Below, one piece after another: positions 837 through 33,366 of a DNA stretch of 64,000 nucleotides. Position numbers and translations under genes: made by a program. Source of the stretch: Verrucomicrobiota bacterium (lineage in GTDB: Bacteria; Verrucomicrobiota; Verrucomicrobiia; Opitutales; Cerasicoccaceae); assembly GCA_039818205.1 (NCBI GenBank), contig JBCBUK010000001.1:96001-160000 (forward strand). The letters are read 5' to 3'. The notes below the pieces were generated by a model. The model was not told the DNA's origin, made no database searches, and saw only the letters and a program-made list of their open reading frames with translations. How positions within the stretch are numbered: the first letter of the stretch is position 1; every line of letters begins with the position of its first letter.

Positions 837-1514
837 CTATTTCAACGGTTCGAATTGGATTGAGCCATCGAGGTAAAGCATCCCAACCTGGTAGCCGTAT
901 TCGCTACCGTCACCAACACCGCTTCCGGTACGGCTGAGTTTGTCGGGAACTGTTTTCAGCAGAAAGAAATCGTGCGGTTTCGCCACCTGTGCATAAACCC
1001 GCGATCGCGGTAGCGGACTATCGGCAAACGAACCATCTTCGGCCTTATTTCCGGCATACCCCCAGATTGGTTGTTTCTCTCCGTGAGATCCGATGAAATT
1101 ACGTCCTACATTCGCAATATATAGTTTCGCTGCCGGATCTTCTCGTTTGTCCTCTAATTTAAAATTGGGAACAAAGCCCTCCAAGGGAACTTGTTTAGGG
1201 TCAGTGTTTGTATTACCGGTTAAATAGGTTTCTAAATACTTAGACAATTGCCCATTTTGCCCGCCTCCAACTAAACCACTTTGCCAAAACCACACAGGCC
1301 CGGGAAGGGAGTCACTATGATCAACTGCATAGAGTTCAATACCCTGGTAAATCGTGCGCATTGAATGGGTACCTTGCGTGATGTTTGCGCGCTGACGAAC
1401 GCTTCCAAAAACGCCGAATAGAATGGACGCAAGGATCGCGACGACCGCGACAGAGACAAGCAGCTCAATCAACGTGAAGCCACGGTATAGTGAAGGGCAA
1501 TAATTTCTTTTCAT
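837..1514 (-). CDS. Prepilin-type N-terminal cleavage/methylation domain protein (PVC-type, H-X9-DG-like C-terminus)
   Basis: RGFTLIELLVSVAVVAILASIL class III signal; C-terminal YGYQVGMLYLDG. Start moved to ATG 1514 (MKRNY) because a promoter lies at 1542-1607. Confidence 0.85.
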   Translation of the reverse strand: MKRNYCPSLYRGFTLIELLVSVAVVAILASILFGVFGSVRQRANITQGTHSMRTIYQGIELYAVDHSDSLPGPVWFWQSGLVGGGQNGQLSKYLETYLTGNTNTDPKQVPLEGFVPNFKLEDKREDPAAKLYIANVGRNFIGSHGEKQPIWGYAGNKAEDGSFADSPLPRSRVYAQVAKPHDFFLLKTVPDKLSRTGSGVGDGSEYGYQVGMLYLDGSIQFEPLK

Positions 1515-1541
1515 CGGGATAATAGTTGAAAAACTAGAAAT

Positions 1542-1607
1542 AGAATAGCTCACCGCACCATTTAAACCAAGAGCACTTTTGCGCAAAGGCACCCCGAGAC
1601 AACCGCA
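1542..1607 (-). promoter_or_regulatory. Regulon promoter: TGCGGT-N16-TGCGCA-N9-TTGGTT-N17-TATTCT
   Basis: Read directly; same spacing as six other promoters in this locus. Confidence 0.65.
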
Positions 1608-1676: not shown

Positions 1677-3887
1677 CTAATCTTCAACAGTTACTCGATA
1701 AAATCTCGATGATGTTGATAGACTATCGCTCAACTCAAGAATATTCCCGGTCCCCAAAATGTCCTGACGAATTGGCAGCCAACCGGAATCCAGCTGGTTC
1801 GAGGCTTCGAGCGAGTATACCCTACCCTCTTCGGAGCTAAAGGACACAATGATCTCGCCACTAGAAGTGCTTTGAATCGTCACCAAAGGCCAGTTTGTCG
1901 AATCCCGTGGGCTAGTACCGAACGAAAACTCAGTTTGATTGTCATAACCATCAAAGTCCTCATCTCCTAGCGGATCATATAGCTGGTGTGAAGCCATCCA
2001 TCGATCCATATCGGAGCCTGGAACAGTAAGAATCAATCGCGGTTGGTTTGCCGCTGCTCCCTCGCTTGAGATGAATGATACATCGTTACCCGAGAGATGC
2101 TCAATGATGAGGCTCAGGCTTGTTTCACCATCAAGCTCAGTGGCATCGAGCGCCCATTGATAAGTTTCATTGCTCGCAAATGCTCGATTTTGGGTAGCTA
2201 ACTGAACGGTGCTTGTCGGCGCATTGGATTGACCGAGATTCTGCTCGGTCCACGCAGTATTGTTACCCTTATCGATATCGATTCGGCCACTTCCATTATC
2301 CGAACCAACGGATAAATCGAGCCGTGCATTTGTGATGCCGCCAGGAACCTCAGAAAGATCGAATTTCAGATACGATATACGCCGACCGCTCTCGACCCTT
2401 AAGACATTCGTATTGTAACGCTGTCCATTTTGCAGGTAAGCATCTTCAATCGGTTGCAACTCAAATGTGCGTTCAGTTGCGGGAAGAACGGTGACTGAAA
2501 CTGACGCCGAAAATCCTCCATCGACCGTGGTCGCAGTTATCACCGTTTCTCCGCGTTTGGCTCCGGCAACTCGACCCAACCGATCGACGGTCGCGATCAG
2601 CGGATCAGCAGAACTCCAAGTCACTGACTGGTTTGTGGCGTTGGCAGGGGCTATCACTGACCGAAAACCAGTTTCTGCCCCTTCTTCGACATACTCCGAA
2701 TCCGTTTCTACAGAGAGGCCTTCTACAACTACTGGTGGCCCGAGCACAATTGGATAGAGCGTTCCGCCGGAAGGAGGGCCAGCGGCGTAAGGCGTAAAAT
2801 TCGTGAGCGGATTCGCTGGCTTCACCTCATGGGGCCCAAAGTAGACAATGTTCGGATCCGACCACGGACGTGTCCCACCGTGATTGTACTCAATGACATC
2901 GTTCTTATAGATGTAATTGGGTCTGGCGGAAAGGTCGTGCTGAATGGACCAAGGACCCATAATCGAGAAATAGTTCGGACTACCGTTCGGCATATCCGCT
3001 GGGATATGGATTCGGTTGTTCTCGATCAAATTATCACCGTCGTCACCACTGTGAAAGCTGACCTCCTGCTCAAAATCGTTATCATAGACAACATTGTAGC
3101 GAACCCCGTCTCCCTGCAATGAGATGTGGCGCAAGTGAGTGATGTAGCACTTAGTAACTAAGTTATAGCCATCAAGGATGAAGAAGTATCCATGTGCGCC
3201 GCCGTGCTTATTGAATACTCCGTCGATATGGCAGTTCCGAATGGTGACGTGATCTGACGAGACGCGAACCGGAAAATCGGCACTATTCAAGATGTTGCAA
3301 TCGTCGATCCAGCAATCCGTAACCCGATGAAAGAAAACGGATATATTTTCATTTCCAGGGAGCTCGTTATTTGCGTTCGTACCGATATTCCAATCATACT
3401 TTGGGACACCCCAGCCACCCCTAATGGAGAGCCGATAGATTCCTGCGTACCGTATGCCATCTCTGAATTCAAATGCCCCACTGTTGGCGGTCATCGACGG
3501 GTTGATAATACACTGCACCCCCTCACGACTCTCACCAACCAGCGCTACTCCGGACTTGAGCTTTACTTCGTCGTTGATGTCGTAGGTGCCATTTTCCAAT
3601 AGGACTGCCCCGCCACCTTCTGCCTCAACGGCATTGATCGCGGCATTGATTGCCGCACTATCGGAGCCTCCAGAAACAGTTCGAACAATAACCAAGTTCT
3701 CGATTAATGGTATCCCGCCGCGGACTCCCGCTCGGATCCAATGTTCCATCTGGGGATAGTCGGGATCAAATTTACTTTCGTCGAAAGTGACACCTTGGTC
3801 ACCAATTTCGAGTGCCAGGAGCGGCGAAGCCTTCCAGCAATGGCATGCAAAGACGGAGAGGCAGATCAACAAAGCACGGGTAGTCAT
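1677..3887 (-). CDS. Secreted right-handed beta-helix (pectate-lyase-like) protein with Big_2 Ig domain, CBM96/DNRLRE-like domain and Verrucomicrobia-type C-terminal domain
   Basis: Signal peptide; DSAAINAAI...GGAVLLENGTY beta-helix start; IAPANATNQSVTWSSADPLIATVD (Big_2); PIEDAYLQNG...RISYLKFDLS (CBM96-like); GDEDFDGYDNQTEFSFGTSP...FYRVTVE tail. Confidence 0.75.
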   Translation of the reverse strand: MTTRALLICLSVFACHCWKASPLLALEIGDQGVTFDESKFDPDYPQMEHWIRAGVRGGIPLIENLVIVRTVSGGSDSAAINAAINAVEAEGGGAVLLENGTYDINDEVKLKSGVALVGESREGVQCIINPSMTANSGAFEFRDGIRYAGIYRLSIRGGWGVPKYDWNIGTNANNELPGNENISVFFHRVTDCWIDDCNILNSADFPVRVSSDHVTIRNCHIDGVFNKHGGAHGYFFILDGYNLVTKCYITHLRHISLQGDGVRYNVVYDNDFEQEVSFHSGDDGDNLIENNRIHIPADMPNGSPNYFSIMGPWSIQHDLSARPNYIYKNDVIEYNHGGTRPWSDPNIVYFGPHEVKPANPLTNFTPYAAGPPSGGTLYPIVLGPPVVVEGLSVETDSEYVEEGAETGFRSVIAPANATNQSVTWSSADPLIATVDRLGRVAGAKRGETVITATTVDGGFSASVSVTVLPATERTFELQPIEDAYLQNGQRYNTNVLRVESGRRISYLKFDLSEVPGGITNARLDLSVGSDNGSGRIDIDKGNNTAWTEQNLGQSNAPTSTVQLATQNRAFASNETYQWALDATELDGETSLSLIIEHLSGNDVSFISSEGAAANQPRLILTVPGSDMDRWMASHQLYDPLGDEDFDGYDNQTEFSFGTSPRDSTNWPLVTIQSTSSGEIIVSFSSEEGRVYSLEASNQLDSGWLPIRQDILGTGNILELSDSLSTSSRFYRVTVED

Positions 3888-3935
3888 GTTGTCAGCGGAT
3901 GAGGGTGGAGATAACAATGCGAGGACGGACCCTGT

Positions 3936-4003
3936 ATTATAGGGCCACAGGTCACATAAGGAACAACACCAATTATCCGCAAACAGGCGTCAATATTTAC
4001 GCA
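3936..4003 (-). promoter_or_regulatory. Regulon promoter: TGCGTA-N16-TGCGGA-N9-TTGTTC-N19-TATAAT
   Basis: Read directly; perfect -10 box upstream of the 3887 start. Confidence 0.7.
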
Positions 4004-4096: not shown

Positions 4097-5563
4097 TTAG
4101 AAAACCACTTTCAAACAGTAACAAAGATCTCGGCTAAGCGCTGCCGGAAGAGTCACTTTCAGAGCGGTATCATCCTGGACCCAATCAATGTCCTGGTCGG
4201 AACCAAGCAACGATACACTCGTGACTCGGCCATCCTCTGAGCTCAACGACAAAGATTTTAGGGCAGCGACTCCACCGTCGTCTGGATATACCATTCCGGT
4301 CACATAGATCGCTCCACTTTTCGTCGTGAATCGAAAATCTTCCGACGTGTATTCCAACTCTTTTTTCTCGAGCATGTGCCCACCCTGCGGGCGAGTCGGT
4401 CCCTCTCCATACTGCTTCCAGGGACGAGTGCCATAAATCGCTTCACCATTTACTTGAATCCAAGCGCCAATGGCTTCCAAGAGGCTCAGCTCTTCCGCAT
4501 CCAAAGTTCCATCTGGCATGAGTGGGACATTGAGAAGCAGGTTGCCGTTTTTACTGACAATATCCACCAGCATTTCGATCACCTGCCGTGGCGTCTTGTA
4601 GGTGACCTCCTTTTGATAATACCACTTTCCGATGCAGGTGTCGGTCTGCCATGGATCTTCCTGAATCTCGCCGACAACCCCACGCTCGAGATCAACCACG
4701 CCGATCCCATCGACAAAATCACCGAATAGATTCTCATCCTCACCGTGTCCAACTGCCTCTGGATATTGGTTTCCATCTTTGTAGTTGTAGACGACATCCA
4801 TTTTCCCGCCGTGCCAGTCGAGGGATTGGTTGTAGTAGTTAGCCAACATACGGCGGCCATACTCGCCAAACGGAACACCGCCATCAGTATAAATCAAATC
4901 GGGTTGATACTTCTCGACAAAATCGGCAATTCGATCCGACCAGTCTTCAATGAAGGTAACCGGTGGGTTGCGTGGATACTCGTGCGAGGTATCCGGATGT
5001 GGCTCGTAGTAAAAGTCCTGAAAGTCTGGATTCGCTCCGTCATAGGGAACGCCTTTGTACGGTCCTGATTTGTCGCTACCTTTGTTCGTGTTGAACCAGC
5101 TGTAGGAGCGTTCATGGTGTTCAGTGATACCGAATCGAAGACCAGCTTTTCGGGCGGCCTTCTCCCACATACCAACGATATCTTTCTTCGGTCCGATGTT
5201 TACAGAGTTCCAGCGATTGTGTTTCGAGTCCCAGCAATCGAAGTTGTCGTGATGAACACCGCAAGTGGTGAAGTAGCGAGCACCAGTCTTGATGTACAGC
5301 TGAATGAGCGACTCGGGATCAAATTTCTCTGCCTTCCAGAGCGGTAAGATATCTTTGTACCCAAACTCTGACGGGTGGCCGTAATGCTTCAGGTGATGTT
5401 CATAATTGGGATGACCCTCCATATACATCTGGCGGGCATACCAGTCACCAACCATCGGAACCGCTTGAGGCCCCCAGTGCGCCCAAATACCAAACTTCGC
5501 GTCACGAAACCACTCTGGGCATTGATATTGTTGAAGGGAGTTCCAAGTCGGTTCAAATTGCAT
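4097..5563 (-). CDS. Alpha-L-fucosidase, GH29 (no signal peptide)
   Basis: WFRDAKFGIWAHWG, HHDNF, YTDG, WQTDTCIG, DIVSKNGNLLLN, WIQVNGEAIYGTRPW motifs. Confidence 0.93.
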   Translation of the reverse strand: MQFEPTWNSLQQYQCPEWFRDAKFGIWAHWGPQAVPMVGDWYARQMYMEGHPNYEHHLKHYGHPSEFGYKDILPLWKAEKFDPESLIQLYIKTGARYFTTCGVHHDNFDCWDSKHNRWNSVNIGPKKDIVGMWEKAARKAGLRFGITEHHERSYSWFNTNKGSDKSGPYKGVPYDGANPDFQDFYYEPHPDTSHEYPRNPPVTFIEDWSDRIADFVEKYQPDLIYTDGGVPFGEYGRRMLANYYNQSLDWHGGKMDVVYNYKDGNQYPEAVGHGEDENLFGDFVDGIGVVDLERGVVGEIQEDPWQTDTCIGKWYYQKEVTYKTPRQVIEMLVDIVSKNGNLLLNVPLMPDGTLDAEELSLLEAIGAWIQVNGEAIYGTRPWKQYGEGPTRPQGGHMLEKKELEYTSEDFRFTTKSGAIYVTGMVYPDDGGVAALKSLSLSSEDGRVTSVSLLGSDQDIDWVQDDTALKVTLPAALSRDLCYCLKVVF

Positions 5564-5599: not shown

Positions 5600-5703
5600 T
5601 ATTTAGGCCGAGTAAGACCCGAAGGTCAAAACTCGCATTGCGCAATCAACCCCTAACTTTGCGCACATTCAGAGTTGAGTCAATCAGCCACAGGAATCAG
5701 ATT
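5600..5703. promoter_or_regulatory. Divergent regulon promoters sharing one pair of TGCGCA boxes (5639-5644, 5660-5665)
   Basis: Minus strand: box-N9-TTGACC-N18-TAAATA. Plus strand: box-N9-TTGAGT-N17-CAGATT. Confidence 0.7.
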
Positions 5704-5772: not shown

Positions 5773-7434
5773 ATGAAGCAGCCGATTTACTTCCTCTTTC
5801 TCGCATTGGTCACGAGTGCGTTTGCAAATACTCCTGATGTTTGGAAACAATACGTGAATGATTACAAGGCGGGGCAACCATCCACCCTCCCCGACTATTC
5901 CTGGGCCGGCTATAAGTACGGTACCGAGGCCATTCCAGATGTCGATTGGAAGGAGTTTAATGTGGTCGATTTTGGTGCTATTCCTAACGATGGCAAATCT
6001 GACTACGAAGCGATTCAGAAAACAATTCGGGCCGCAGAAGCGCATGGATCTGGCGTAGTGTTTTTCCCACCGGGCAGGTTTCTGGTCGCTGAGCGCGAAG
6101 ACATCGAAAAAGGTATTACGATCAACGGTGCCAACATCGTATTACGCGGTAGCGGCAGTGGCGTAAACGGGACCGAGATTCACCAGAAGAACCACTATCT
6201 CCCGGCCGATCCGAAGAAGCTTTGGACGGTTCCCCCGGTTTTTGTATTCAGCCACCCTTCCAGCCGGGTATTCCTGTCTCGCTATCGAAACGAGGCGCAT
6301 AAGCTAGCGACGGTTGTTGAATCAGCCAAACGCGAATCATTTTCTATCGTGCTCAACAATGCTTCGGAAGTTCAAGCTGGGCAGACAGTCATGCTATGCG
6401 CTCGTAGCATCGATCTGAACGAGCAATTCCTATTGGGACTAAAACCACGGAAGATCTTTAGTGAAATCGTCGAGAATGGGGTTTCCGTCTCGGAAAAGCA
6501 CATAGTGAAGTCAGTCGATGGAAACCGAGTCACCTTCGTAGAACCAATTCGCTTCGACATTGATCCCAACATTACTTGGACGCTTTACGACTACCCGATG
6601 ATCGAAGGATGGGGCGTCGAAGATATTCATTTTACAGGCAACTGTCCGGTTCCATTTGTTCATCACAAGAACTTTATTCACGATAGCGGATTCCAAGCGG
6701 TAGCGATGGAAAAAGGACGCAACTGCTGGATACGCCGATGCCGTTTTACCAACATGACACAGGCTTATAAGGCGTCTGGCTGCATTGCTTCATCGTTCAT
6801 TCTCAACACGATTGACGGTCATCAAGGGCATGGAAATTTCAACATGAACTGGGGTGGCGGCAACATGATCGGCCTCTCCCAAGACCTTACCGACAAGGGC
6901 TCATTCCATGGATGCGGCATTTCCCACGAGAACATTAGTGGAGTCATTTGGCGCTACGAGTCGGTCGGTAGCACGGACACAACCCCGCGCTGCGGTGGAC
7001 CAGATTTTCACGCCCAATTTCCATTCTGCTCCCTTTGGGATGCATGTAAGGCCAACCTCATGGACAATGGAGGCAACTACAAGCTACAGCCAAATCATCT
7101 GCGTGACCTTACGTTCTGGAATTTTGAGCAGATCGGAGAAGCGGTATACTATGATTACTGGGCAATACCCGAATCGAAATCGCAAGAGAAAAACCGCTAC
7201 TTCGGTGGGTGCAAGTTGGTCTTTCCAAACTACATCGGCTTTCACGGCGTTAAAACTACCTTCAATCAAGATCACCTCGGAGTATTTGAGTCTTACGGGA
7301 AGCCAGTACAACCTGAATCACTTTACGAGGCACAGCTTGAGCTGCGCCTTGGTCATGCCCCTTCGTGGGTTTCTGATGCGAAAGCCGAATGGTCTCAGCT
7401 AAAGCGAGCGCATCGGGCGGCTCACTCTCAATAA
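5773..7434 (+). CDS. DUF4955-domain beta-helix protein, putative PL29-like glycosaminoglycan lyase
   Basis: Signal peptide; LPDYSWAGY, FNVVDFGAIPNDGKSD, VFFPPGRF; C-terminal LTFWNF...PESLYEAQLELRLG. The DUF4955/PL29 link is recalled from B. thetaiotaomicron BT3328. Confidence 0.75.
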   Translation: MKQPIYFLFLALVTSAFANTPDVWKQYVNDYKAGQPSTLPDYSWAGYKYGTEAIPDVDWKEFNVVDFGAIPNDGKSDYEAIQKTIRAAEAHGSGVVFFPPGRFLVAEREDIEKGITINGANIVLRGSGSGVNGTEIHQKNHYLPADPKKLWTVPPVFVFSHPSSRVFLSRYRNEAHKLATVVESAKRESFSIVLNNASEVQAGQTVMLCARSIDLNEQFLLGLKPRKIFSEIVENGVSVSEKHIVKSVDGNRVTFVEPIRFDIDPNITWTLYDYPMIEGWGVEDIHFTGNCPVPFVHHKNFIHDSGFQAVAMEKGRNCWIRRCRFTNMTQAYKASGCIASSFILNTIDGHQGHGNFNMNWGGGNMIGLSQDLTDKGSFHGCGISHENISGVIWRYESVGSTDTTPRCGGPDFHAQFPFCSLWDACKANLMDNGGNYKLQPNHLRDLTFWNFEQIGEAVYYDYWAIPESKSQEKNRYFGGCKLVFPNYIGFHGVKTTFNQDHLGVFESYGKPVQPESLYEAQLELRLGHAPSWVSDAKAEWSQLKRAHRAAHSQ

Positions 7435-7526: not shown

Positions 7527-7591
7527 TGCGCAAAATGGAAAACGTTATGCGTAAATAATTCCTAGTGTATGATGAGCTTTAAATTAATACT
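7527..7591 (+). promoter_or_regulatory. Regulon promoter: TGCGCA-N15-TGCGTA-N9-TAGTGT-N17-AATACT
   Basis: Read directly; the -35 has TAG instead of TTG. Confidence 0.6.
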
Positions 7592-7817: not shown

Positions 7818-9005
7818 ATGAAAGCAATCAGAAAGCTACTACCCCTTCAATCTACCCCGAGACTCATTGTACTCGTTGCTACAGCATGCCTACTCATACC
7901 CCTTGCCCAGGCTAGAACCGTCAACGTTACCCCTAGCAACTTTGCTAGCAAACTAAGCAGTGGCATTGCCAACGGGGATACTGTTATTCTCGCTGGTGGT
8001 AACTACACCATGACAACGGCAATGTGGAACAATGTCGCGTCAAAATCTAATGTACGCTACTATGGCAATGGACGTTATGGTAGTAATCCCACGGTTCTAA
8101 ATTCAACTGGAACTAGGATGCCCCGGGTTCGCATCGATGGCAAAGGCGCCACCATATTCCAAGGAATGCGCATCTTGAACGCGGCCCTATTCTTGCGCAA
8201 CTGTAACAACCATCGATTGAACTACATCTACGCCGAGACTACTCGAAAGCCTCAGTTTGCTGGCGATAGCCTTTTCAATGGTTTCTTGGCTCGAGGCTAT
8301 CAGACAAATCTCGATTCGGCCTGGAGATTTCGCAATGAGACTGGCAAAGCCTACTCGACCAATAGCCCTACCGGATACACGTTCAATAACACCGACTGCA
8401 CCAACTCAAGCGACGTAAAGGGCGCGGTTGACGTTAGCCGGATTCAAGGCAGCGGTGTGGTCACAATCAGTGGTGCAAACGCGTCTCGCTGGTGGAATGC
8501 GCCTACCGGCGGTCGCGATTTCGAAGACCATGGCATCTACGTACGCTCAGGTTCAGTAAACCAACAGATCAAGATCGACAATTGCAGCATGAAAGGCTGG
8601 ACCGATACCGGTGCTGGACAAATGGTCAAGATCAAGGCAACCCAGAATGTTGTTGCTGATCGCATCACAGGCAATCGCTCGGGCATCATTATCCGCACGG
8701 GCAACAATTTCTCGGGTGGCGGCGGAGATCAGATCACCAAGAGTATCTTGGTCAAGCGAAGCACCGTGAGTGCTGGCGACATCAACTGCTACTTTCAATA
8801 CAATGAAGGCGAAGCAATTCGCATCGAAAACAATACGATCCAAAATGGCACGGTTCAGATTAACAGCGTCAATACCAACCCGACCAAAATAAATCGTCGC
8901 CTTCGCCTCATCAGCACCGCTTTAGGGGGAGTATTCAACAACAAGACGAAACAAGCTCTCGATATCCGGAGTGGGATTCGAAACAGTGGAAACACTCGTC
9001 TCTAG
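7818..9005 (+). CDS. Secreted, basic, probable parallel beta-helix protein of unknown family
   Basis: Signal peptide ending AQA; TVNVTP...GDTVILAGGNY start typical of beta-helix lyases; EDHGIYV and IRIENNTI turns; rich in Asn, Gly and Arg. Confidence 0.6.
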   Translation: MKAIRKLLPLQSTPRLIVLVATACLLIPLAQARTVNVTPSNFASKLSSGIANGDTVILAGGNYTMTTAMWNNVASKSNVRYYGNGRYGSNPTVLNSTGTRMPRVRIDGKGATIFQGMRILNAALFLRNCNNHRLNYIYAETTRKPQFAGDSLFNGFLARGYQTNLDSAWRFRNETGKAYSTNSPTGYTFNNTDCTNSSDVKGAVDVSRIQGSGVVTISGANASRWWNAPTGGRDFEDHGIYVRSGSVNQQIKIDNCSMKGWTDTGAGQMVKIKATQNVVADRITGNRSGIIIRTGNNFSGGGGDQITKSILVKRSTVSAGDINCYFQYNEGEAIRIENNTIQNGTVQINSVNTNPTKINRRLRLISTALGGVFNNKTKQALDIRSGIRNSGNTRL

Positions 9006-9078: not shown

Positions 9079-9096
9079 TTGCCTCCCCGAATTCTG

Positions 9097-20447: not shown

Positions 20448-20555
20448 AAACGAAAACGGCTGAGATCTTTACACCAGACATGTGTCTGATCGAAACAATC
20501 AGCGAGTAGTTAATAACTCTGCGTAACAAAGCTATCATTTTGACAATTTACGTCT

Positions 20556-20622: not shown

Positions 20623-20627
20623 ATGGT

Positions 20628-24036: not shown

Positions 24037-25797
24037 ATGCTAACATTTTACGATTACATAGCCATCGGCTTCTATTTCGTTTTCACCTTATCCCTCGGGT
24101 TTGTGTTTCGCCGATTGAACACTGGAGGTACCGACTACTTTGCGGGTGGACGAAAAATGAATTGGTGGCTCCTGGGAACGAGCTCCTTCATTTCCAATTT
24201 CAGCGCTTGGTCATTCACCGGAGCCGCTGGCATGGCCCATAGCTTCGGCATAATCGTGTTCAGCATCGCGGTTATCGACATCGTTGGATTCATCGTCAGC
24301 TATCTTTGGTTTGCCGGTCGTTTCCGTCGCCTGCGCTTGGTAACAGCAATGGACGCTGTCCGGCTGCGGTTTGGAAAGTCGAGTGAGCAACTCTTCACCT
24401 GGCTACAGGTAGTCACCGCTTTCTTTGGCGGGGCCGTCTGGCTGGTGGGACTATCGATTCTGCTTTCAACCGCATTTGGACTGCCACAGATACCGATCGT
24501 GGTTTTCTGCACGATTACGATAACCACGATGGCGCTCGTGGGCGGTAAATGGGCGGTTTCAGGCAGTGACTTTGTTCAGACGATCCTCCTTTCCGGCATT
24601 TCAATTGTCGTGCTGATACTCACCCTACTCCATCTCGGAGATATATCGCGTCTGTTCACCGAGCTTCCGGAAGGACATGGGAAATTCTTCCATCCGCTCG
24701 GCGACATCAAATACGACTGGCTCTACATCATGACCGGATTGATCTGGGGCATTTACCAGAAGAACAGTATTCTATTCGGCGCTGCTAAATACATTGCGGC
24801 AAAAGACGACAAGCATGCCAAGAAATCGGTGCTCATTCCGCTCATCGGATACGCAATTCTGCCATTCGCTTGGTACGTCCCGGCGATGGCTGCCATCATC
24901 ATCGTCCCGGATTTGATGGAGACCTATTCGAACTTTAAAAACCCATCTGAGGCTGCCTACATCGCTGTATGCCTGGAAGTATTGCCGCAAGGTCTCTTGG
25001 GACTAACGGTTGCTGGGCTCTTTGCAGCTACTATGTCGTCGATGGATACCGCGCTGAATGTAAACGCGGGCTTCCTCGTTAAGAACTTCTACCAACCGAT
25101 TTTCCGCAAAAATGCATCGGAACGTGAACAACTGGTTGCGGGGCAAATTGCTACGGTCTTCTGCGGTGTCGTCATGCTCGGTTTAGCAATAACCTTGGTC
25201 ACCCGAGGCGAGATCTCACTATTTGATGCCTACCTCTACCTCAACGCCTACATCCAAGCCCCGCTAACCGTGGCCTTGTTTCTTTCCGTATTCATCAAGA
25301 AAACGCCCGCCTGGTCGGGTTGGTCAACGGTGCTCATCGGTATCGCCTCAACGATCCTCATTTACGATTTCGCTCCCACGGATACTGCGCAGGCCTGGCT
25401 GACATCGCTCTTCGGTAGCGACTTTGCATCCTACATCGTTACGAATAAATTCACCTTCACGAACGTCATTACCGTTCCACTTTGCAGCATCTATTTCTAT
25501 TGCACGAAGTGGTGTTACAAGGCGGAAACTGCCAAGCAGGCTTATGTCGCCGATCTCAAAGATTTCGAGAATCGATTGGACAAGCCGGTGGATTTCGAAA
25601 GTGAAGTTGGTGGTGACAACACCGGCCAGCAAGCCCGCATTATGAGTATTCTGTCTCTCATCTATGGCGGTTCAATTTTCCTCGGCGTCTTGATTCCGAA
25701 TCCGATCACCGGCCGGCTCTCAATCGCCTTTTGTAGCCTAACGCTTATCGGTGTCGGATTGGCTCTTCGGCAATACGCCAAGAAGCAACTGGACTAG
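24037..25797 (+). CDS. Sodium:solute symporter (SSS) family sugar transporter
   Basis: DYFAGGRKMNWW, FSAWSFTGAAG, GLFAATMSSMD; many TM segments. Confidence 0.9.
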   Translation: MLTFYDYIAIGFYFVFTLSLGFVFRRLNTGGTDYFAGGRKMNWWLLGTSSFISNFSAWSFTGAAGMAHSFGIIVFSIAVIDIVGFIVSYLWFAGRFRRLRLVTAMDAVRLRFGKSSEQLFTWLQVVTAFFGGAVWLVGLSILLSTAFGLPQIPIVVFCTITITTMALVGGKWAVSGSDFVQTILLSGISIVVLILTLLHLGDISRLFTELPEGHGKFFHPLGDIKYDWLYIMTGLIWGIYQKNSILFGAAKYIAAKDDKHAKKSVLIPLIGYAILPFAWYVPAMAAIIIVPDLMETYSNFKNPSEAAYIAVCLEVLPQGLLGLTVAGLFAATMSSMDTALNVNAGFLVKNFYQPIFRKNASEREQLVAGQIATVFCGVVMLGLAITLVTRGEISLFDAYLYLNAYIQAPLTVALFLSVFIKKTPAWSGWSTVLIGIASTILIYDFAPTDTAQAWLTSLFGSDFASYIVTNKFTFTNVITVPLCSIYFYCTKWCYKAETAKQAYVADLKDFENRLDKPVDFESEVGGDNTGQQARIMSILSLIYGGSIFLGVLIPNPITGRLSIAFCSLTLIGVGLALRQYAKKQLD

Positions 25798-25801
25798 TAA
25801 A

Positions 25802-27469
25802 ATGCTGGGTTTGAACACACTTCGAATTGCTCTAGCTACGCTGCTCGGCGTTGTTGTAAGCAGCATTCCGACAACGGTGATTGCTGAAGGCGAACCACCG
25901 AATGTAATTCTCATCGTCCTGGATGATTTTGGCAGTGGACAGTTCGCCCCGCTGGCCCTCGACATCGTTCTTGAGGACGTGGATCCTGGACTCGTTGCCT
26001 ACAGCCAAGCCCTCGGAGACGACTCATATGACGCGGAGGCGGCCCTCAACGCGGCCCAGAACGCCATGCCGTTTATGGATACATTGGTATCCGAATCCGC
26101 GCTATTTACCAATGCCTACGCGGCGAGTAGCCTTTGTGCGCCATCTCGCCAGGCAATTCTAACGGGAACCAGCCCAACCCGCTGGGGCGCCTATCGCAAC
26201 ATCGACATCAACGTTTGCGGATTTCCAGAAAATCGATCGTTACCCGCGATACTTCAACACGACGGATACAGCACTGGCTTTGTCGGCAAGTGGCACGTCG
26301 GCAGTAAAGACCAAAGCATCCGCAAACGCATACTGGCTAATGGCGGCACCGAGAAAGATGCGATCGAAGCTGGTTACATGGGATCCGTTGTTGAACGCGA
26401 CCACCCGCTAAACAACGGCTTTGACTACGCCTTCTTCTACAATCTTTGGGAATGTCCCTACTACGACTCAACGCATCTCTGGGAGAATCGAACGCACACG
26501 GGAAAGCAGCCTGAATACAACACCGATCTCTTCACCGACAAGGGTCTTGCGTTTATTAAAGATGCGCTCGAAGCAGGCGACCCCTTTTTCTTAGAGATCG
26601 CCTATCACTCGGTGCACATCCCATTGAATGTTGATGCCCCAGAGAAATACCAGGGATACATCACTACCGGAGACCGCAGCGTCGACCAATTCTACACCCA
26701 TGTCTATGCGATTGATCATTCAATCAAACGCATTGTAGATACCCTAAAAGATCATCGGGCCTGGGATAACACGATCCTATTCTTCACATCCGACAACGGG
26801 GCGACTTGCAAGGTAGGCGACGGCGACCTGAGTCTCGTTCCAGGCAATCTACGACGCCAGGGCCACAAGGGCCAATACTTCCTTGGCGGAGTCCAAGTAC
26901 CGCTTGTCGTTTCTTGGCCCGCACGTTTTGGCAGTGGTCAGCGAATCGACCGTATGGTCTCTCTCATGGATCTGTTGCCCACTGCAATCGATGCCGCAGG
27001 CCTCGAGCTTCCTAACAACATCGACGGCAAAAGCCTAGTCGGCTTATTAGAAGACGACCAAGCGCCACATCATCACCAATTATTCTTTGCGGGAATACAG
27101 GCGCCCGCTTGGGGCTATACGGGCAAAGGTGTAATTGGAAATGCTCAAAAACGCCGGGATCAGTTTCCCGGAGCCTGGGCAGTCATTCAGGATGATTGGA
27201 TCCTACGCTATGTCGGCGAACTAGATCAGGGATTAACCTACAGTAACCCGACGGGCAAGCCGTCGAGCTTGTCCTTGCACAACCTCGAAGATGATCCCTT
27301 AGAGATCGACAATCGTATCGAACAATTTCCGGAGCTGACCAGCGAGATGCAAAAGCACTATGACGCATTCGCGGAAACGCTTCCTCCGCCTCATCGCTGG
27401 AGCAAAAAGCGTTGGAATGAACTCGTTCCAGATTCAAATCCCGACAAAGCCATCGCCTCTGCCAACTGA
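25802..27469 (+). CDS. S1 sulfatase
   Basis: Signal peptide; PNVILIVLDDFG, CAPSRQAILTG, GKWHVG, SVHIP, SDNG. Confidence 0.92.
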   Translation: MLGLNTLRIALATLLGVVVSSIPTTVIAEGEPPNVILIVLDDFGSGQFAPLALDIVLEDVDPGLVAYSQALGDDSYDAEAALNAAQNAMPFMDTLVSESALFTNAYAASSLCAPSRQAILTGTSPTRWGAYRNIDINVCGFPENRSLPAILQHDGYSTGFVGKWHVGSKDQSIRKRILANGGTEKDAIEAGYMGSVVERDHPLNNGFDYAFFYNLWECPYYDSTHLWENRTHTGKQPEYNTDLFTDKGLAFIKDALEAGDPFFLEIAYHSVHIPLNVDAPEKYQGYITTGDRSVDQFYTHVYAIDHSIKRIVDTLKDHRAWDNTILFFTSDNGATCKVGDGDLSLVPGNLRRQGHKGQYFLGGVQVPLVVSWPARFGSGQRIDRMVSLMDLLPTAIDAAGLELPNNIDGKSLVGLLEDDQAPHHHQLFFAGIQAPAWGYTGKGVIGNAQKRRDQFPGAWAVIQDDWILRYVGELDQGLTYSNPTGKPSSLSLHNLEDDPLEIDNRIEQFPELTSEMQKHYDAFAETLPPPHRWSKKRWNELVPDSNPDKAIASAN

Positions 27470-27487: not shown

Positions 27488-29239
<1,752 letters not shown>

Positions 29240-29259: not shown

Positions 29260-30693
29260 ATGTTCACAGCAAAATATTCTTTTATGCGGGAGAGTCGGAT
29301 GACCCGGCTCCTCCTCGCCCTGTTCTGCGCCTTGGGGTGCACAGCGGCGACTGCCGCTCAGGGTCCTAACTTTGTCATCCTCCTTGCGGATGATCTTGGA
29401 TGGGCCGACGTCGGGTTTCACGGTAGCGATATCGAAACACCGAACCTAGACAGTCTGGCCAAGAAGGGAGTTCAGCTAAAGCAGTTCTACGTGCAGCCGA
29501 CTTGCTCGCCAACTCGCATCGCATTGATGACGGGTCGCTATCCTTATCATATCGGCGGGCATATCAGCGTCCTGCGGCCATACCATAAGCATGGCGTTCC
29601 CGTCGATGAGAACATGCTCTCTCAAGTCTTGAAGGACGCAGGGTACAAAACCGCCATCACGGGCAAATGGCACCTTGGATTAGCGCGCAAAGCCTACTGG
29701 CCCACATCTCGAGGATTCGACCTCGCTCACGGCTGCCTAGGTGGAGCGGTCGATTACTTCAATCACACTGGATACGGTTCCTTGGACTGGTATGACCAAG
29801 ATACGATACCGCTCCGCGAGGAAGGCTACGCGACCGACCTAATCGGACAACGAGCCGCCCAGATTATCGAAGACCATGACTTTAGAAAACATCCACTCTT
29901 TCTCTACGTGCCTTTCAACGCACCCCATACACCGCTCGATGCAAAGTCCGAAGACATTGCAAAATACAGCAGCGAGAAGAATGAGAAACGTCGAATCTAC
30001 TGCGCTCAGGTCGACAACATGGACCAAGCAATCGGAAAAATTATTGAAGCACTTAAGGCCAAAAACGTATTCGACAATACGGTCATCCTATTCGCCTCCG
30101 ATAATGGTGGCTATGGCGATGGAAAAATAGCCGACAACAAACCATTCCGCGGTGGCAAAGGCAAACCGTTCGAAGGTGGAATCCGGGTGCCGGCGTTCAT
30201 CATATGGCCCGACGGGCTTAAGGGCGGCCGCAGCTACGACCAACCCCTGCACATTGTCGATGTCCTACCGACCTTCGCGGACTTGGCCAAAGCCAGCACC
30301 TCAAAGTGCAAGCCACTCGATGGAATCGATTTTTGGCCCTCTCTTGCCGACGGAACGCCCCTCCCTAAACGTGACATTTACCACAACGTGAAGGACAAGA
30401 AAGGCGGACGCGGAAGCATCCGCAGCGGTGATTGGAAATTGATTGTTGCCCGTAAAGATCGTGCACCAGACGGCACACCGCTTCAAGGATCCAAACACGT
30501 CGCGCTTCTTTTCAACATTGCCGACGACCCCTATGAGACTAAGAATCTCGCTACATCACACCCGGAGATCGTTTCGACACTCTGGGGAAAGCTCAAAGCC
30601 AAAGGACCCGAAGTCGGCAACGCCAAACCCTACACTGCGCGTGCTCCTGAAGGTTGGGCTGCGCCAGCCGACTGGTCTGGCGTTCCCAATTAA
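29260..30693 (+). CDS. Arylsulfatase B-like S1 sulfatase (start may be ~29299)
   Basis: PNFVILLADDLGW, CSPTRIALMTG, GKWHLG, APHTP, SDNGG, EGGIRVP. Confidence 0.92.
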   Translation: MFTAKYSFMRESRMTRLLLALFCALGCTAATAAQGPNFVILLADDLGWADVGFHGSDIETPNLDSLAKKGVQLKQFYVQPTCSPTRIALMTGRYPYHIGGHISVLRPYHKHGVPVDENMLSQVLKDAGYKTAITGKWHLGLARKAYWPTSRGFDLAHGCLGGAVDYFNHTGYGSLDWYDQDTIPLREEGYATDLIGQRAAQIIEDHDFRKHPLFLYVPFNAPHTPLDAKSEDIAKYSSEKNEKRRIYCAQVDNMDQAIGKIIEALKAKNVFDNTVILFASDNGGYGDGKIADNKPFRGGKGKPFEGGIRVPAFIIWPDGLKGGRSYDQPLHIVDVLPTFADLAKASTSKCKPLDGIDFWPSLADGTPLPKRDIYHNVKDKKGGRGSIRSGDWKLIVARKDRAPDGTPLQGSKHVALLFNIADDPYETKNLATSHPEIVSTLWGKLKAKGPEVGNAKPYTARAPEGWAAPADWSGVPN

Positions 30694-30702
30694 GATACCA
30701 CG

Positions 30703-33366
30703 ATGACCGCCCGCGCTTTATTCGTTTGCTTTGGAATACTGCTTGCCCTCACCTTTTTTGGTTGTGGTGAATCGCCACCGTCTGTCGCAACTGATAAAAT
30801 GCAAACGGACCAGCAGGCCGAGTCGGTCGAAACAACTAAGGAAGCCGCCGAATCGGTTTCTTCAGCTGAGCCTGAAAATCCGACTGAGCCACCTCAGAAG
30901 ACATTTGAAAACCCTTACCCTAAGGGAACCTTATACCACGAATTTCTCGAAGCGAAACACAATGGCAAACCCTCTCGGTTGACCGACTATAGCTACGCTG
31001 GCTACCATCGCAGTCAGAAACCCTTGCCGACCGTTTCGAAGGACACCTATCGCTACTTCGATGTTACCGAGTATGGCGCACGACCTGGTGACAATCGATC
31101 CGATCGAGACGCCGTCATTGCCGCACTAACGGCTGCCCACGCACATGATGGGCCGGCAGTTGTCTATTTTCCACCGGGCAATTTTCGGTTATTCGAGAAA
31201 AGCGACTTCGGCAAAGTCCCGATTGAAATCACTCGCAGTAACATTGTGCTCAAGGGAGCCGGGATGGGCTCAACTCAATTGGAATTTGCCGAAACGCATC
31301 TTCCCGCACGGCCGCTGATCCTCTTTCGCTCTAGCACGGGGAAAGACGACTATTGGCGGGGAGATAAGAAACTAAATGCTGTCGCAACCCACCAGGTCGA
31401 CACTTACACGGTTGAGGTCTCCGATACCTCAGGGCTAAAGCCTGGTATGCGGATCAATTTCAACCCTTCGATGGATCCGAATGCAGAGTCGACCAAGGAA
31501 TTTTTTGCACCACATGATGTCCCACAAGGGATATTCAACCGCGCGAAGAATAAGGGTGGCGTTCTCACAGACATCTTTGAACTCCATGAAATAAAGAGCA
31601 TCGATGGCAATCTCGTGACCTTTGGTGAACCGATTCAATTGGAATTCGACGCCTACCAGAATTTTCAGATCTATCGCATTGATGGCATCATCGAGGAGTG
31701 CGGAATAGAAGACCTCTCGCTCCGCGGAGGATGGCGTGGCGTCTTTCAACACCACAACGGATCCCGCTACGGTGAGGACTACATCATGATTGCAATGAAT
31801 CGCGTCTTCAATAGCTGGGTTCGGCGTGTCCGCATCGCAGACTACAGTTTCGCCTTCAAGCAATGGCTCTGCGGATTTAATACCATCACCGATGTAATCC
31901 TCGAAGGTAATCCAGGACACCTTTCGATGGTTAGCCAAAGTTCCTACGGCAATCTCTTTGCATTCATTCGGGAACAACGGGACACGCACCACGGCCTCGG
32001 CGTATCGCGATCGGGAACCAACTCTGTCTTTTACCGCTGCGTGCAACACGAGAGTATGGAGGCGCACTGCGGCTACCCGCGTGCTACCCTCTACGATCTG
32101 AACGAAGGCGGCTTTCACCCACGAGGCGGAGGGGCCACCTTCTTCCCAATGCACGACAAGGGGCTAACCTTTTGGAACTGGAATGTCACCAAGCCTGGCT
32201 CGTTTGATTTTTGGCCTGAAGGCAAACGCTACGGCTATTTCTTACGCCCGATCATCGCTGGTCTTCACGGCGAGAAATTTGAGATTCCAGACGTAGAAAC
32301 CGACCTGCTCGCATTCGAGTCACCGGGAATCAAGACAGCGCCGGAATCACTATTTGAAGCCCAGCTAAAACAGCGCCTTGGCTATCTTCCCGAGTGGTTG
32401 GTCCAGGCACGCGACGACTTTGAATCAGTTAGCCGACACTCGGTGATCTCAATTGCTCAACCGCTTGATCAAACGGTCCACAACAACGATGTGCTAGTAT
32501 CGGTCGAGCTAGACCCCGATCTTGACCCTTCGCAGGTGACGCAGATCGACCTGCATGTCTCAAAAACCAGCCGTTGGGATGGTTTTTTGAACCTTGGCGA
32601 GATTAGCGTCGAATCCCTAAAACGACGTTTTCGTTTACCAACCGATGGTGTCTGGATCCTCAAGCTAAAACTCACCAACAGTCGGGACGAAATCAGTTTC
32701 AGCAAGCCCATCACCGTTTTCGTTGGCCGTGAACAGAACTTGAGGGAAGTCGAAGTCGTAGACTTTGCCATGATTCCTGCTAAAGCAAAGAACAAGCTCT
32801 ACCAGGAATTCGTTAAAATGGGAGGCGGAGAGGCCGCAAAACTCCCTACCAGCAAAGTGCTTTTACTTCGGGATAAAAATGAGCCACTCCACACGGTCGA
32901 GGTTCCCTATCGCGAAGAGCTTCATCAATTCTACCGCGACTATGGAAAGAAAACATTCAACAAGTTGCTAGACAAAGACCTCGCCCGCCCCTTGTTCGAT
33001 GGTAAGAGCAACAACGGCGGGCCCAATGTATACGGCTACCAAGACACACTCATCCAGGCCAAATTTCCGTTTAACCGCCGTATCAACCGCCTTGATATCC
33101 ACTGGAAAGACGAAGTCCCAGGAGCCAAGGTTCGGCTGGAAATCCAGACCTCTCAGGACCTCGATGCCTGGAATAGTTTTGCGAATGACGACCGCCTCTG
33201 GGAGTTTTCAGTTGGAAGACTCGGTGGAACCCTGGTGAAAGCTCCGCTACCGGGATCAAATGGCGTAAGCAGTATCTACTTCCCCGAACGTGATGCCCGC
33301 TTGATCCGGCTATTACTCACCAGCTTTCCCAACGAGATTGCGGAGTTGAAGTTCTACGGCCCCTAA
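30703..33366 (+). CDS. DUF4955-domain (PL29-like) lipoprotein with C-terminal Ig-like and F5/8-like extensions
   Basis: Lipobox-like FFGC followed by a low-complexity linker; DYSYAGY, VYFPPG, LTFWNW, PESLFEAQLKQRLG; ~300 extra aa ending RLIRL...IAELKFYG. Confidence 0.75.
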   Translation: MTARALFVCFGILLALTFFGCGESPPSVATDKMQTDQQAESVETTKEAAESVSSAEPENPTEPPQKTFENPYPKGTLYHEFLEAKHNGKPSRLTDYSYAGYHRSQKPLPTVSKDTYRYFDVTEYGARPGDNRSDRDAVIAALTAAHAHDGPAVVYFPPGNFRLFEKSDFGKVPIEITRSNIVLKGAGMGSTQLEFAETHLPARPLILFRSSTGKDDYWRGDKKLNAVATHQVDTYTVEVSDTSGLKPGMRINFNPSMDPNAESTKEFFAPHDVPQGIFNRAKNKGGVLTDIFELHEIKSIDGNLVTFGEPIQLEFDAYQNFQIYRIDGIIEECGIEDLSLRGGWRGVFQHHNGSRYGEDYIMIAMNRVFNSWVRRVRIADYSFAFKQWLCGFNTITDVILEGNPGHLSMVSQSSYGNLFAFIREQRDTHHGLGVSRSGTNSVFYRCVQHESMEAHCGYPRATLYDLNEGGFHPRGGGATFFPMHDKGLTFWNWNVTKPGSFDFWPEGKRYGYFLRPIIAGLHGEKFEIPDVETDLLAFESPGIKTAPESLFEAQLKQRLGYLPEWLVQARDDFESVSRHSVISIAQPLDQTVHNNDVLVSVELDPDLDPSQVTQIDLHVSKTSRWDGFLNLGEISVESLKRRFRLPTDGVWILKLKLTNSRDEISFSKPITVFVGREQNLREVEVVDFAMIPAKAKNKLYQEFVKMGGGEAAKLPTSKVLLLRDKNEPLHTVEVPYREELHQFYRDYGKKTFNKLLDKDLARPLFDGKSNNGGPNVYGYQDTLIQAKFPFNRRINRLDIHWKDEVPGAKVRLEIQTSQDLDAWNSFANDDRLWEFSVGRLGGTLVKAPLPGSNGVSSIYFPERDARLIRLLLTSFPNEIAELKFYGP

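Follow-up and report, generated by a model that had tools for sequence, protein, structure and literature searches.

Which polysaccharide is the target of a gene cluster of about 33 kb (positions 837-33366 of the window, the whole 64,000-nucleotide stretch of marine verrucomicrobial DNA analysed here)? The first-pass annotation had listed its genes and proposed fucosylated chondroitin. Pfam and NCBIfam searches of the predicted proteins recovered every gene named there: a PL8 lyase, two DUF4955 proteins, two GH29, one GH2 and one DUF2264 enzyme, four sulfatases, an SSF/SSS symporter and a sensor-plus-AraC regulator (Table 1). We consider it highly probable that the cluster is a chondroitin-type glycosaminoglycan regulon, and give about an even chance to a fucose-branched chondroitin as target, for example the fucosylated chondroitin sulfate of invertebrates such as sea cucumbers. 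The backbone half of the proposal is well supported, since five independent enzyme families and the gene neighbourhoods of other genomes agree with it. The fucose half draws support from a conserved GH29-PL8 linkage and is weakened by the ambiguous GH29 sugar, the lack of an assignable fucose sulfatase and the absence of canonical fucose and hexosamine catabolism from the genome. No description of a cluster of this kind was found in the literature searched.

Table 1. Genes and promoter motif pairs of the cluster (window positions).
Feature	Position	Strand	Evidence and remarks
Prepilin-type N-methylation protein	837..1592	-	PF07963; likely start 1514
Secreted beta-helix protein, Ig and CBM96 modules	1677..3917	-	Pfam; candidate lyase or hydrolase
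Motif pair 1	3976..4003	.	22-bp spacing; upstream of 1677-3917
GH29a	4097..5563	-	No signal peptide (likely cytoplasmic); PF01120; best PDB 7SNK/7LJJ, E 5e-90
Motif pair 2	5639..5665	.	Between divergent GH29a and DUF4955a
DUF4955a, putative PL29-like lyase	5773..7434	+	PF16315; NF058554 E 5e-88
Motif pair 3	7527..7553	.	Upstream of 7818
Secreted beta-helix protein	7818..9005	+	No Pfam match; Atlas beta-helix look-alikes, no family matched
Two membrane-anchored proteins	9079..11170	+	Likely starts 9097 and 10091; no Pfam match
S1_27-like sulfatase	11199..12773	-	CSPHR, Cys95; twin-arginine-like N-terminus
PL8 chondroitinase-ABC-type lyase (predicted), marine clade	12778..15843	-	PDB 2Q1F, E 1e-103
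GH29b	15844..17406	-	Signal peptide; likely start 17334; PF01120; PDB 7SNK, E 7e-87
DUF1961 module fused to sulfatase	17406..19433	-	Pfam; CTPSR; candidate fucose sulfatase
PEP-CTERM surface protein	19523..20269	-	Module of ~200 residues; candidate glycan-binding
Motif pairs 4 and 5	20421..20582	.	Starts 20421 and 20556; central divergent promoter
DUF2264 protein (former GH154)	20592..22643	+	No signal peptide; PDB 9O4U, E 3e-13; 9NWF, E 2e-12
XylR-type regulator	22735..23949	+	Sugar-binding domain and AraC HTH (Pfam)
Motif pair 6	23939..23966	.	Upstream of symporter operon
Sodium:solute symporter	24037..25797	+	PF00474; predicted oligosaccharide importer
Candidate GalNAc-6-O-sulfatase, PB_3285 type	25751..27469	+	Likely start 25802; Cys112
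GH2 beta-glucuronidase (predicted)	27497..29239	+	No signal peptide; NF007538
Sulfatase	29260..30693	+	CSPTR; subfamily ambiguous between two near-tied structures
DUF4955b, putative PL29-like lipoprotein lyase	30703..33366	+	C-terminal extension; PF16315; NF058554 E 4e-78

The PL8 protein, in which Pfam found Lyase_N, Lyase_catalyt and Lyase_8, is only 27-30% identical to characterised members, and the structure and homologue searches returned no characterised enzyme from within its clade; PVC members of this clade have a helical domain some 50 residues shorter. Its model (pLDDT 87.9) superposes on 1HN0 with Z 43.1 (rmsd 4.3, 890 residues aligned) and on 2Q1F with Z 40.7 (rmsd 4.2, 912 aligned). 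The alignment retains a His375-His376 pair and His492, Tyr499, Arg555 and Glu614, the last four of which we take to be catalytic; the His, Tyr and Glu align with 2Q1F and are invariant in 39 sequences, while Arg555 was placed through alignment to outgroup rows only. By sequence and modelled fold the protein is nearest to chondroitinase ABC and is predicted to be a chondroitin lyase. Both DUF4955 proteins combine the beta-helix domain PF12708 with PF16315 and match NF058554, the BT3328 family, at 296 and 264 bits; because this lies below the equivalog cut-off of 1100 they are classed as PL29-like only. The match of DUF4955a spans model positions 299-837, and the N-terminal spacer of BT3328, described in the accessible part of PMC6994673, is absent. 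DUF4955b has homologues in G008 (51%) and G275 (48%).

Two sulfatases also point to GalNAc. The one at 11199 is closest to S1_27 GalNAc-4-O-sulfatases (top PDB matches 8DI0, 6S21 and 6J66, E 1e-97 to 7e-82; next outside the group, 1e-42), 6S21 being presumably BT3349, going by its PDB title. The candidate 6-O-sulfatase is the best match in the host genome, G000 (31%, E 3e-78), of Photobacterium sulfatases used as proxies for PB_3285, which were chosen by the gene size of 1,608 bp and the Cys109-Pro111-Arg113 printed in the accessible text of PMC8819143. With an ABC-type PL8 fold, an S1_27-like neighbour and a PB_3285-like sulfatase, the backbone evidence is firmer than it was at first pass. 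The label glucuronidase-type, earlier given to two proteins, suits the GH2 enzyme (631 bits, cut-off 544; orthologues of 77-78% in G062 and G275) and not the DUF2264 protein, whose best solved relatives are glucuronate dehydratases. Its Tyr231, Arg285 and Tyr289 (numbered on 20634-22643) align with Tyr229, Arg285 and Tyr289 of BcGDH, given as the catalytic trio in the accessible part of PMC12269599, once the numbering is shifted by 5, as the residue range of 9NWF suggests; the protein is better read as a predicted beta-glucuronate dehydratase.

The shared promoter motif noted at first pass was confirmed: two TGCGCA-like cores 21-22 bp apart stand ahead of every transcription unit, in six pairs with leave-one-out scores of 17.4-29.3 bits, and are enriched beyond chance. 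A scan of the whole genome at a threshold of 21 bits gave nine pairs with spacing 21 and four with spacing 22, six of these 13 being training sites; each of 21 other spacings gave 0-2. Beyond the training genome, the 161.5 kb of nine orthologous loci contain 16 pairs scoring 22 bits or more, with none in 435 kb of 22 other loci and none at four control spacing pairs. Outside the cluster the motif precedes C1:294427 (GH88/105 hydrolase, acetylesterase), a third DUF4955 gene (C12:6978) and C12:5427-6665, a paralogue of the beta-helix protein at 1677-3917. Regulator orthologues of 58-60% identity adjoin motif copies in G062 and G275, and the position of pair 6 after the regulator gene is kept in G062; the regulator is likely the protein that binds the pair.

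For uptake there is the symporter (orthologues of 75% in G275 and 59% in G260), and no SusC/SusD pair among the 38 window proteins; the cluster works like a chondroitin sulfate polysaccharide utilisation locus of Bacteroidota but, having no SusC/SusD, is not a member of that class. The genome holds two PF07470 genes (unsaturated uronyl hydrolase; GH88/GH105 family) and a KduI match above the equivalog cut-off. NagA, NagB and AgaS gave no match in G000 (99.97% complete), nor did fucose isomerase (FucI), FucU and GH95; a microcompartment shell, present in all five congeners, gave none either. The cluster has no hexosaminidase, and one weak GH20 lies elsewhere in the genome. No canonical gene accounts for what this strain does with GalNAc and fucose.

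We then come to the branch. GH29a and GH29b each have an Alpha_L_fucos domain with aligned Asp and Glu motifs, whose Asp and Glu are presumably catalytic. GH29b abuts PL8 in one predicted operon, and its orthologues, 70-78% identical, flank PL8 in two Pontiellaceae genomes: in G061 these are the best two of the 26 listed GH29b matches (78% and 70%; the genome holds some 100 candidate GH29 genes, and related genomes do not count as independent samples), and in G062 the best GH29a match (71%, adjoining PL8) and the best GH29b match both flank the PL8 orthologue. Five PL8/GH29b protein pairs come from contigs of equal length and are inferred to share a contig; three of the pairs are on short metagenome contigs. 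In G260 each of the two GH29 genes has a PL8 about 4 kb away, and a GH95 is found about 6 kb from the PL8 orthologue; the DUF4955/PL8 cluster of G008 carries its own GH29. In G000, two of eight GH29 genes fall within the cluster's 19 of 3,887 ORFs (P = 6e-4 under random placement, an overstatement because CAZyme genes cluster anyway). GH29 occurs in the flanks of 3 of 17 clade PL8 loci vs 1 of 61 other PL8 loci; the remaining 14 clade loci, some incomplete, show none. A fucose-branched target is the most economical reading of these sequences and is strengthened by the conserved GH29-PL8 linkage. Fucose branches block chondroitinases (PMC6835048, PMC3917272), so that debranching would be needed.

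Under this reading, exported PL29-like proteins and PL8 would eliminate accessible GalNAc-beta-1,4-uronate bonds, the S1_27-type and PB_3285-type sulfatases would take off GalNAc 4- and 6-sulfate, respectively, and exported GH29b would strip alpha-L-fucose branches, reopening lyase sites. The motif-linked GH88/105 hydrolase, about 180 kb distant, would remove unsaturated uronate, and the symporter would import short oligosaccharides, possibly still branched. Inside, GH29a, the GH2 glucuronidase and the DUF2264 dehydratase would finish saturated glucuronate ends, and uronate would enter the KduI pathway. The sulfatases at 17406 and 29260 are candidates for fucose sulfates; by nearest structures neither, nor any other in the cluster, is assignable to fucose. 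The former is nearest to S1_19-type carrageenan sulfatases (E 4e-53), with a 53% homologue adjoining clade PL8 in locus L057. The latter matches S1_19-type 6BIA (E 7e-84) about as well as human GalNAc-4-sulfatase 1FSU (E 2e-80), and homologues of 66% and 53% adjoin PL8/DUF4955 genes in L027 and L054. The PEP-CTERM module recurs in lyases: it shares 40% identity with the N-terminal part of the C15 PL8 and occurs joined to PL8 and DUF4955 enzymes (L030, L152). That the whole is a dedicated holothurian system, in which the marine PL8 clade or a beta-helix protein cuts the still-fucosylated backbone, these two sulfatases act on fucose and the module founds a new glycosaminoglycan-binding family, is a tentative extension that we hold doubtful.

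The strongest competing account, itself somewhat unlikely, is an ordinary chondroitin/dermatan/hyaluronan regulon whose GH29 enzymes handle other fucosylated matrix material (glycoproteins, sulfated fucans) rather than chondroitin branches. The core does occur without a GH29b orthologue in Bacteroidota clade loci and in G008, G063 and G064, where PL8 orthologues are present and no GH29b match exceeds 44%, as well as in G275, which has the regulator operon and motif, with no GH29 on the regulator contig and no PL8 found. GH29b homologues turn up in unrelated contexts, with no PL8 or DUF4955 beside those of Bacteroidota (50-70%) at any of 14 sites within the stretch examined, and ordinary chondroitin sulfate supports growth of both Pontiella type strains (PMC7356697), members of species that have this PL8 clade, a finding that equally favours the chondroitin backbone of the main reading. 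This account, however, leaves GH29b wedged in the PL8 operon and GH29a next to a DUF4955 gene with which it has its promoter in common; GH95 and more than one distinct GH29 lineage are found repeatedly beside PL8 clusters, and Pfam identified no mucin- or fucan-type endo-enzyme in the cluster. Even if it held, the cluster would still yield lyases of an uncharacterised PL8 clade and of PL29-like type and, for PVC bacteria, a regulator paired with a motif.

A second account, which we judge improbable, makes the GH29 enzymes alpha-L-galactosidases acting on an undescribed sulfated uronate polymer with L-galactose branches, made by red algae, microbes or ascidians. Among solved structures both enzymes are closest to BpGH29, an alpha-L-galactosidase acting on porphyran (7SNK, 7LJJ), but the Fusarium fucosidase 4NI3 is almost equally close to GH29b (E 8e-82); the GH29 tree and genomic contexts are mixed as to L-fucose vs L-galactose, and each enzyme is predicted to be either an alpha-L-fucosidase or an alpha-L-galactosidase. 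Paralogues in the same genome adjoin porphyranase- and agar-type genes, an L-galactose-dehydrogenase-like enzyme is present where FucI, NagA and NagB are missing, many named carriers of the PL8 clade are algal-polysaccharide degraders by name, and in G008 a 55% GH29a homologue adjoins three genes for an aldo-keto reductase, a lactonase and a Zn-dehydrogenase. Against this, the S1_27-type, PB_3285-type, ABC-type PL8 and PL29-like enzymes all indicate GalNAc-uronate, and FucI is present in G061, G062 and G260. We know of no L-galactose-branched chondroitin. Finally, the uronic-acid-rich brown-algal fucoidan that the first-pass annotation kept as its alternative is very improbable, for although GH29s, several sulfatases, a motif-linked acetylesterase, two unassigned beta-helix proteins and the fucoidan degradation of Pontiella (PMC7356697) would suit it, G000 lacks GH95, FucI and a microcompartment and has only eight GH29 genes (in a search that left out GH107, GH141 and GH168), the PL8 model fits chondroitinase ABC (Z 43) far better than it fits the mannuronate lyase 7R2X (Z 27.6), and the GalNAc-type sulfatases would be without substrate.

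Compared with the accessible parts of published accounts, the cluster resembles B. thetaiotaomicron BT3324-BT3350 (PMC6994673) in its ABC-type PL8 with adjacent S1_27-like 4-sulfatase (there the BT3349/BT3350 pair), PL29-like lyases, candidate 6-sulfatase and unsaturated uronyl hydrolase. It differs in having a symporter and XylR-type regulator rather than SusC/D or a hybrid two-component sensor, in a 6-sulfatase candidate that is PB_3285-like and not S1_15, in a distant hydrolase gene, and in adding two GH29, a GH2, a DUF2264, two extra sulfatases and beta-helix proteins. Bacteroides caccae PUL25 with BcGDH (PMC12269599) likewise pairs DUF2264/GH154, its Tyr/Arg/Tyr aligned, with an unsaturated uronyl hydrolase, but has PL35 and GH109 where our cluster has PL8/PL29-like lyases, sulfatases and GH29s; our DUF2264 is a 670-residue form of weak similarity (E 3e-13). 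In Photobacterium chondroitin loci (L104, L105, L112, L119; PB_3262/PB_3285, PMC8819143) DUF2264, a PB_3285-like sulfatase, PL8 and GH88/105 adjoin, with GalNAc uptake and catabolic genes, no GH29 and a PL8 only 27% identical. Fucosidases also stand beside glycosaminoglycan lyases in gut Bacteroides loci with GH29/GH95/GH117, a co-location that its authors suggest points to fucosylated glycosaminoglycan (bioRxiv 10.64898/2026.05.19.726164); the clearest of these are heparan/heparosan loci (PL15, PL33), of another lyase clade, regulator and phylum. BpGH29 shares the aligned Asp and Glu motifs, whereas its porphyran locus (PMC12316285, accessible part) has GH16/GH86 and S1_11, none of which is in the cluster.

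As an anticoagulant lead, fucosylated chondroitin sulfate has to be broken down by chemical means, since its fucose branches stop chondroitin lyases and hydrolases (PMC6835048). If the fucose-branched reading is true, the cluster would supply a natural kit (fucose sulfatases, fucosidases, tolerant lyases) for making defined oligosaccharides and for use in sequencing, and would reveal the way in which echinoderm matrix is recycled by bacteria of the sea. The question is open to experiment, given some ten named genes, a reporter-ready promoter motif and type strains in culture that have orthologous loci.

Genes similar to the prepilin-type gene lie near related lyase clusters (L027, L046, L047, L054). 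The structure search (Atlas) with the protein at 1677..3917 gave beta-helix look-alikes and no family. The beta-helix protein at 7818..9005 has a 29% homologue in the DUF4955 cluster of G008, and the membrane-anchored pair has homologues of 32% and 28%, in the same order, in G008 locus L133. In favour of a chondroitin-type backbone, the DUF2264/PL8 cluster of G260 adjoins nagB and a PIG-L deacetylase gene.

Domain and family searches recovered, between window positions 837 and 33366, every gene that the first-pass annotation had listed there. The source genome (4.85 Mb, 99.97% complete), of which the window spans C1:96001-160000, has 3,887 called ORFs, including 8 GH29-like, about 50 sulfatase, 3 DUF4955, 2 PL8 and 1 DUF2264 genes. 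The best homologues of the cluster PL8 carry Verrucomicrobiota names, in agreement with the first-pass placement. A PL8 orthologue was found in none of five same-genus genomes, indicating that the distribution of the cluster is patchy. We consider the cluster probably a real, co-regulated chondroitin-type system, the parts of which are known families; that its target is fucose-branched we regard as an even call.

Coordinates of the features discussed (window positions unless a fetched locus, L, is named)
Feature	Location	Remark
GH29a	4097-5563	
DUF4955a	5773-7434	
Beta-helix protein and two membrane-anchored unknowns	7818-11170	order kept in comparison genome G008, L133:10146-13437
S1_27-type sulfatase	11199-12773	
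PL8	12778-15843	
GH29b	15844-17406	
Second sulfatase	17406-19433	
Stand-alone PEP-CTERM protein	19523-20269	
DUF2264	20592-22643	
XylR-type regulator	22735-23949	
Third sulfatase	25751-27469	
Fourth sulfatase	29260-30693	
DUF4955b	30703-33366	
Subtilase (S8)	39815-42607	fused to two malectin domains
Separate sugar cluster	44148-51795 and 62895-63998	
Likely large secreted nuclease	53524-61287	2,587 aa
Second PL8 locus, source genome	L022:10560-17888 (contig C15, 22.5-29.9 kb)	
Sugar operon, source genome	L174:2474-10825 (contig C1, 167-176 kb)	
Module-bearing lyases	L022:10560-15272; L030:8267-12985; L152:5255-9157; L152:3440-5101	
Further PL8 clusters, Pontiella sulfatireligans	L126-L130 (G061:C1:1575-1670 kb); L131-L132	six and four PL8 genes
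URO-D-family genes	L043:8690-9793; L171:6420-7463	P. sulfatireligans; comparison genome G260
PL8 reading as two ORFs, Zobellia laminariae AS94	L052:7167-10022	whole in L053

By sequence, PL8 is closest to chondroitinase ABC (2Q1F, E 1e-103), and its predicted fold (pLDDT 87.9) matches 1HN0 with a Z of 43.1 and an rmsd of 4.3 over 890 residues. In the alignment, the catalytic residues His, Tyr, Arg and Glu are all retained. Its clade is marine, with about 50 proteins at 42-68% identity followed by a gap and then canonical members at 24-31%. Compared with 2Q1F and with the Bacteroidota clade members, the cluster PL8 has a helical domain shorter by about 50 residues. Four bases downstream of PL8 lies the first sulfatase, the top structures for which are S1_27-type 4-O-sulfatases; PL8 and an S1_27-type sulfatase are likewise neighbours in a B. 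thetaiotaomicron locus (PMC6994673). The third sulfatase is the best match in the source genome (31%) of the sulfatase adjoining PL8 in Photobacterium loci, where two sulfatases have the 1,608-bp length and the Cys109-Pro111-Arg113 printed for the GalNAc-6-sulfatase PB_3285. The second and fourth sulfatases are nearest to S1_19-type enzymes, with no subfamily assignable. Both DUF4955 proteins match the portion of BT3328 past its N-terminal spacer, far under the family cut-off, and Atlas searches returned no family for either beta-helix protein. GH2 exceeds the beta-glucuronidase cut-off and KduI is encoded in the genome. DUF2264 had been annotated as a glucuronidase, a reading we replace with that of a dehydratase, since its best structures are glucuronate dehydratases; three catalytic residues of the dehydratase of PMC12269599 align, and the family is reported to prime saturated glucuronate ends for GH88 (PMC12269599). 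Growth on chondroitin sulfate is reported for both Pontiella type strains (PMC7356697).

The second PL8 of the source genome (1,570 aa) adjoins a second GH88/105-type gene, and no motif pair above 17 bits was found at that locus. Z. laminariae AS94 has a tandem pair of clade PL8 genes, one of which reads as two ORFs. The beta-helix protein and its two membrane-anchored neighbours adjoin GH29 and DUF4955 genes in G008.

The shared promoter motif of the first-pass annotation was borne out: TGCGCA-like cores occur as six pairs with a spacing of 21-22 bp, and one or more of these pairs lie ahead of every predicted transcription unit. With a matrix built from the six pairs, each site scored 17.4-29.3 bits when left out in turn, and the preference for this spacing was clear. 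Sixteen pairs of at least 22 bits were found in 161.5 kb of orthologous loci (P. sulfatireligans, Pontiellaceae bacterium B12227, comparison genome G275 and locus L045). No such pair turned up in the 435 kb of other loci that were fetched, nor at four spacing pairs used as controls, and related clusters of comparison genomes G008, G063 and G064 had no copies. Spacing of two helical turns is typical of AraC-family sites. In B12227 and G275, motif copies occupy matching places around regulators 58-60% identical, and this like placement around orthologous regulators suggests that the motif is likely bound by the regulator encoded in the cluster itself. Outside the cluster, the source genome has five intergenic sites of at least 22 bits: ahead of a GH88/105-type hydrolase and acetylesterase, of the third DUF4955 gene and a paralogue of the beta-helix protein at 1677-3917, of a sugar ABC transporter, of an FAD oxidoreductase and of a CBM96 protein, the last three of which may still be sites of paralogous regulators. 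We rejected the idea of a generic XylR site found at all CAZyme loci, as the genome has about 12 XylR-like genes versus only these five sites and as the other PL8 clusters of P. sulfatireligans lack the motif. A general repeat search of the window returned chance or paralogue matches only and missed the motif.

We then asked whether GH29 genes accompany PL8. GH29b abuts PL8, and GH29a and DUF4955a lie under one divergent promoter. Nearly the whole gene set is present in B12227 (DUF2264 72%, regulator 58%, sulfatase 54%, GH2 78%, DUF4955 71%, GH29a 71%, GH29b 74-77% and PL8 62% identity), together with three further GH29s. In P. sulfatireligans, PL8 is flanked by the best two GH29b matches among 26 listed. 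In database listings, 5 of the best 20 PL8 homologues come from contigs equal in length to that of one of the best 17 GH29b homologues, and so probably share a contig with it. In the complete genome G260, each of the two GH29 genes (2/2) has a PL8 at a distance of about 4 kb, a GH95 is found about 6 kb away from the PL8 orthologue, and one cluster has nagB and a deacetylase next to it. The DUF4955/PL8 cluster of G008 contains a GH29 from another lineage. GH29 genes were found in the flanks of 3 of 17 clade loci versus 1 of 61 other loci, a count over 78 loci kept from 298 matches, made by BLAST comparison with no GH29s other than the two of the window and with flanks of up to 10 kb, several incomplete. 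The GH29 tree, a quick version in which 31 rows were chosen by hand and lyase loci are over-represented, is no measure of association.

Among the further P. sulfatireligans clusters, L126-L130 includes five GH29s, a GH95, a DUF2264 (61%) and a heparinase-like gene, without the motif; these clusters possibly serve other fucosylated GAG types. URO-D-family genes lie near the PL8 orthologue in P. sulfatireligans and G260, and FAD oxidoreductases, linked in P. sulfatireligans, are tied by the motif in the source genome; both may hint at methylated sugars.

Several results speak against a fucose-branched target. Among solved structures, the porphyran alpha-L-galactosidase BpGH29 (PMC12316285) is the closest to GH29a and GH29b alike, and their paralogues in the source genome lie in porphyran/agar-type contexts. 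None of 14 Bacteroidota sites with GH29b homologues, mixed in context, had PL8 or DUF4955 nearby. In G008, G063 and G064, where the PL8 orthologue is present, no match to GH29b exceeded 44%. The regulator operon, the S1_27-type gene and the motif occur in G275, with no GH29 on the regulator-operon contig and no PL8 found. A separate metagenome scan with GH29b yielded 10 loci, in which no segment longer than 150 residues exceeded 53% identity, and a PL8 was seen in none of the five long ones examined. A class-wide search of 400 genomes, with only three candidates scored per genome, gave no GH29b orthologue. Searches of the source genome for fucose isomerase, GH95, FucU and microcompartment shell found no match, as did those for NagA, NagB and AgaS, while the shell is present in all five congeners, a 640-residue NagB-type protein in four of the five, and fucose isomerase in P. 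sulfatireligans, B12227 and G260. This gap is odd for the carrier of a chondroitin-type cluster: the strain may use uronate only, take an unrecognised route or meet a polymer that has no hexosamine. The operon at L174 (aldo-keto reductase, SDR, UxaA-type dehydratase, sugar porter, RraA-type aldolase, GH29 and LacI regulator) may be an oxidative L-fucose or L-galactose route; its genes at C1:167-175 kb may serve fucose in this way.

Signal-peptide-like N-termini, called by hydropathy only, suggest that the lyases, the sulfatases and GH29b are exported and that GH29a, GH2 and DUF2264 stay in the cytoplasm. We infer a scheme in which the polymer would be desulfated and debranched and then cut by elimination, the unsaturated uronate would be removed, short fragments would be imported, and saturated glucuronate ends would be finished by glucuronidase or dehydratase. 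The hydrolase has a signal peptide and the dehydratase does not. An internal GH29 and two saturated-glucuronate routes would suit fragments arriving branched on glucuronate, where holothurian fucose is reported to sit (PMC3917272). Fucosidases beside GAG lyases are reported from gut Bacteroides, where a fucosylated GAG was suggested (bioRxiv 10.64898/2026.05.19.726164). Enzymatic cleavage of fucosylated chondroitin has been called not feasible (PMC6835048); in our search of the literature outside subscription journals, no title or opening of an abstract described a locus or enzyme set that degrades it, and such work may exist.

The stand-alone PEP-CTERM protein has a module of about 200 residues, with no Pfam family, that is also N-terminal in PL8 and DUF4955 lyases (36-42% identity), including a match at the N-terminus of the second PL8 of the source genome. 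From its distribution among these sequences, it is a candidate new glycosaminoglycan-binding module.

Elsewhere in the window, the likely nuclease combines Ig repeats with an exonuclease/endonuclease/phosphatase domain and an endonuclease I domain. The separate sugar cluster encodes a sulfatase, ThuA-like proteins, a second symporter and a 3-keto-disaccharide hydrolase, and is of the oxidative glycoside-cleavage type.
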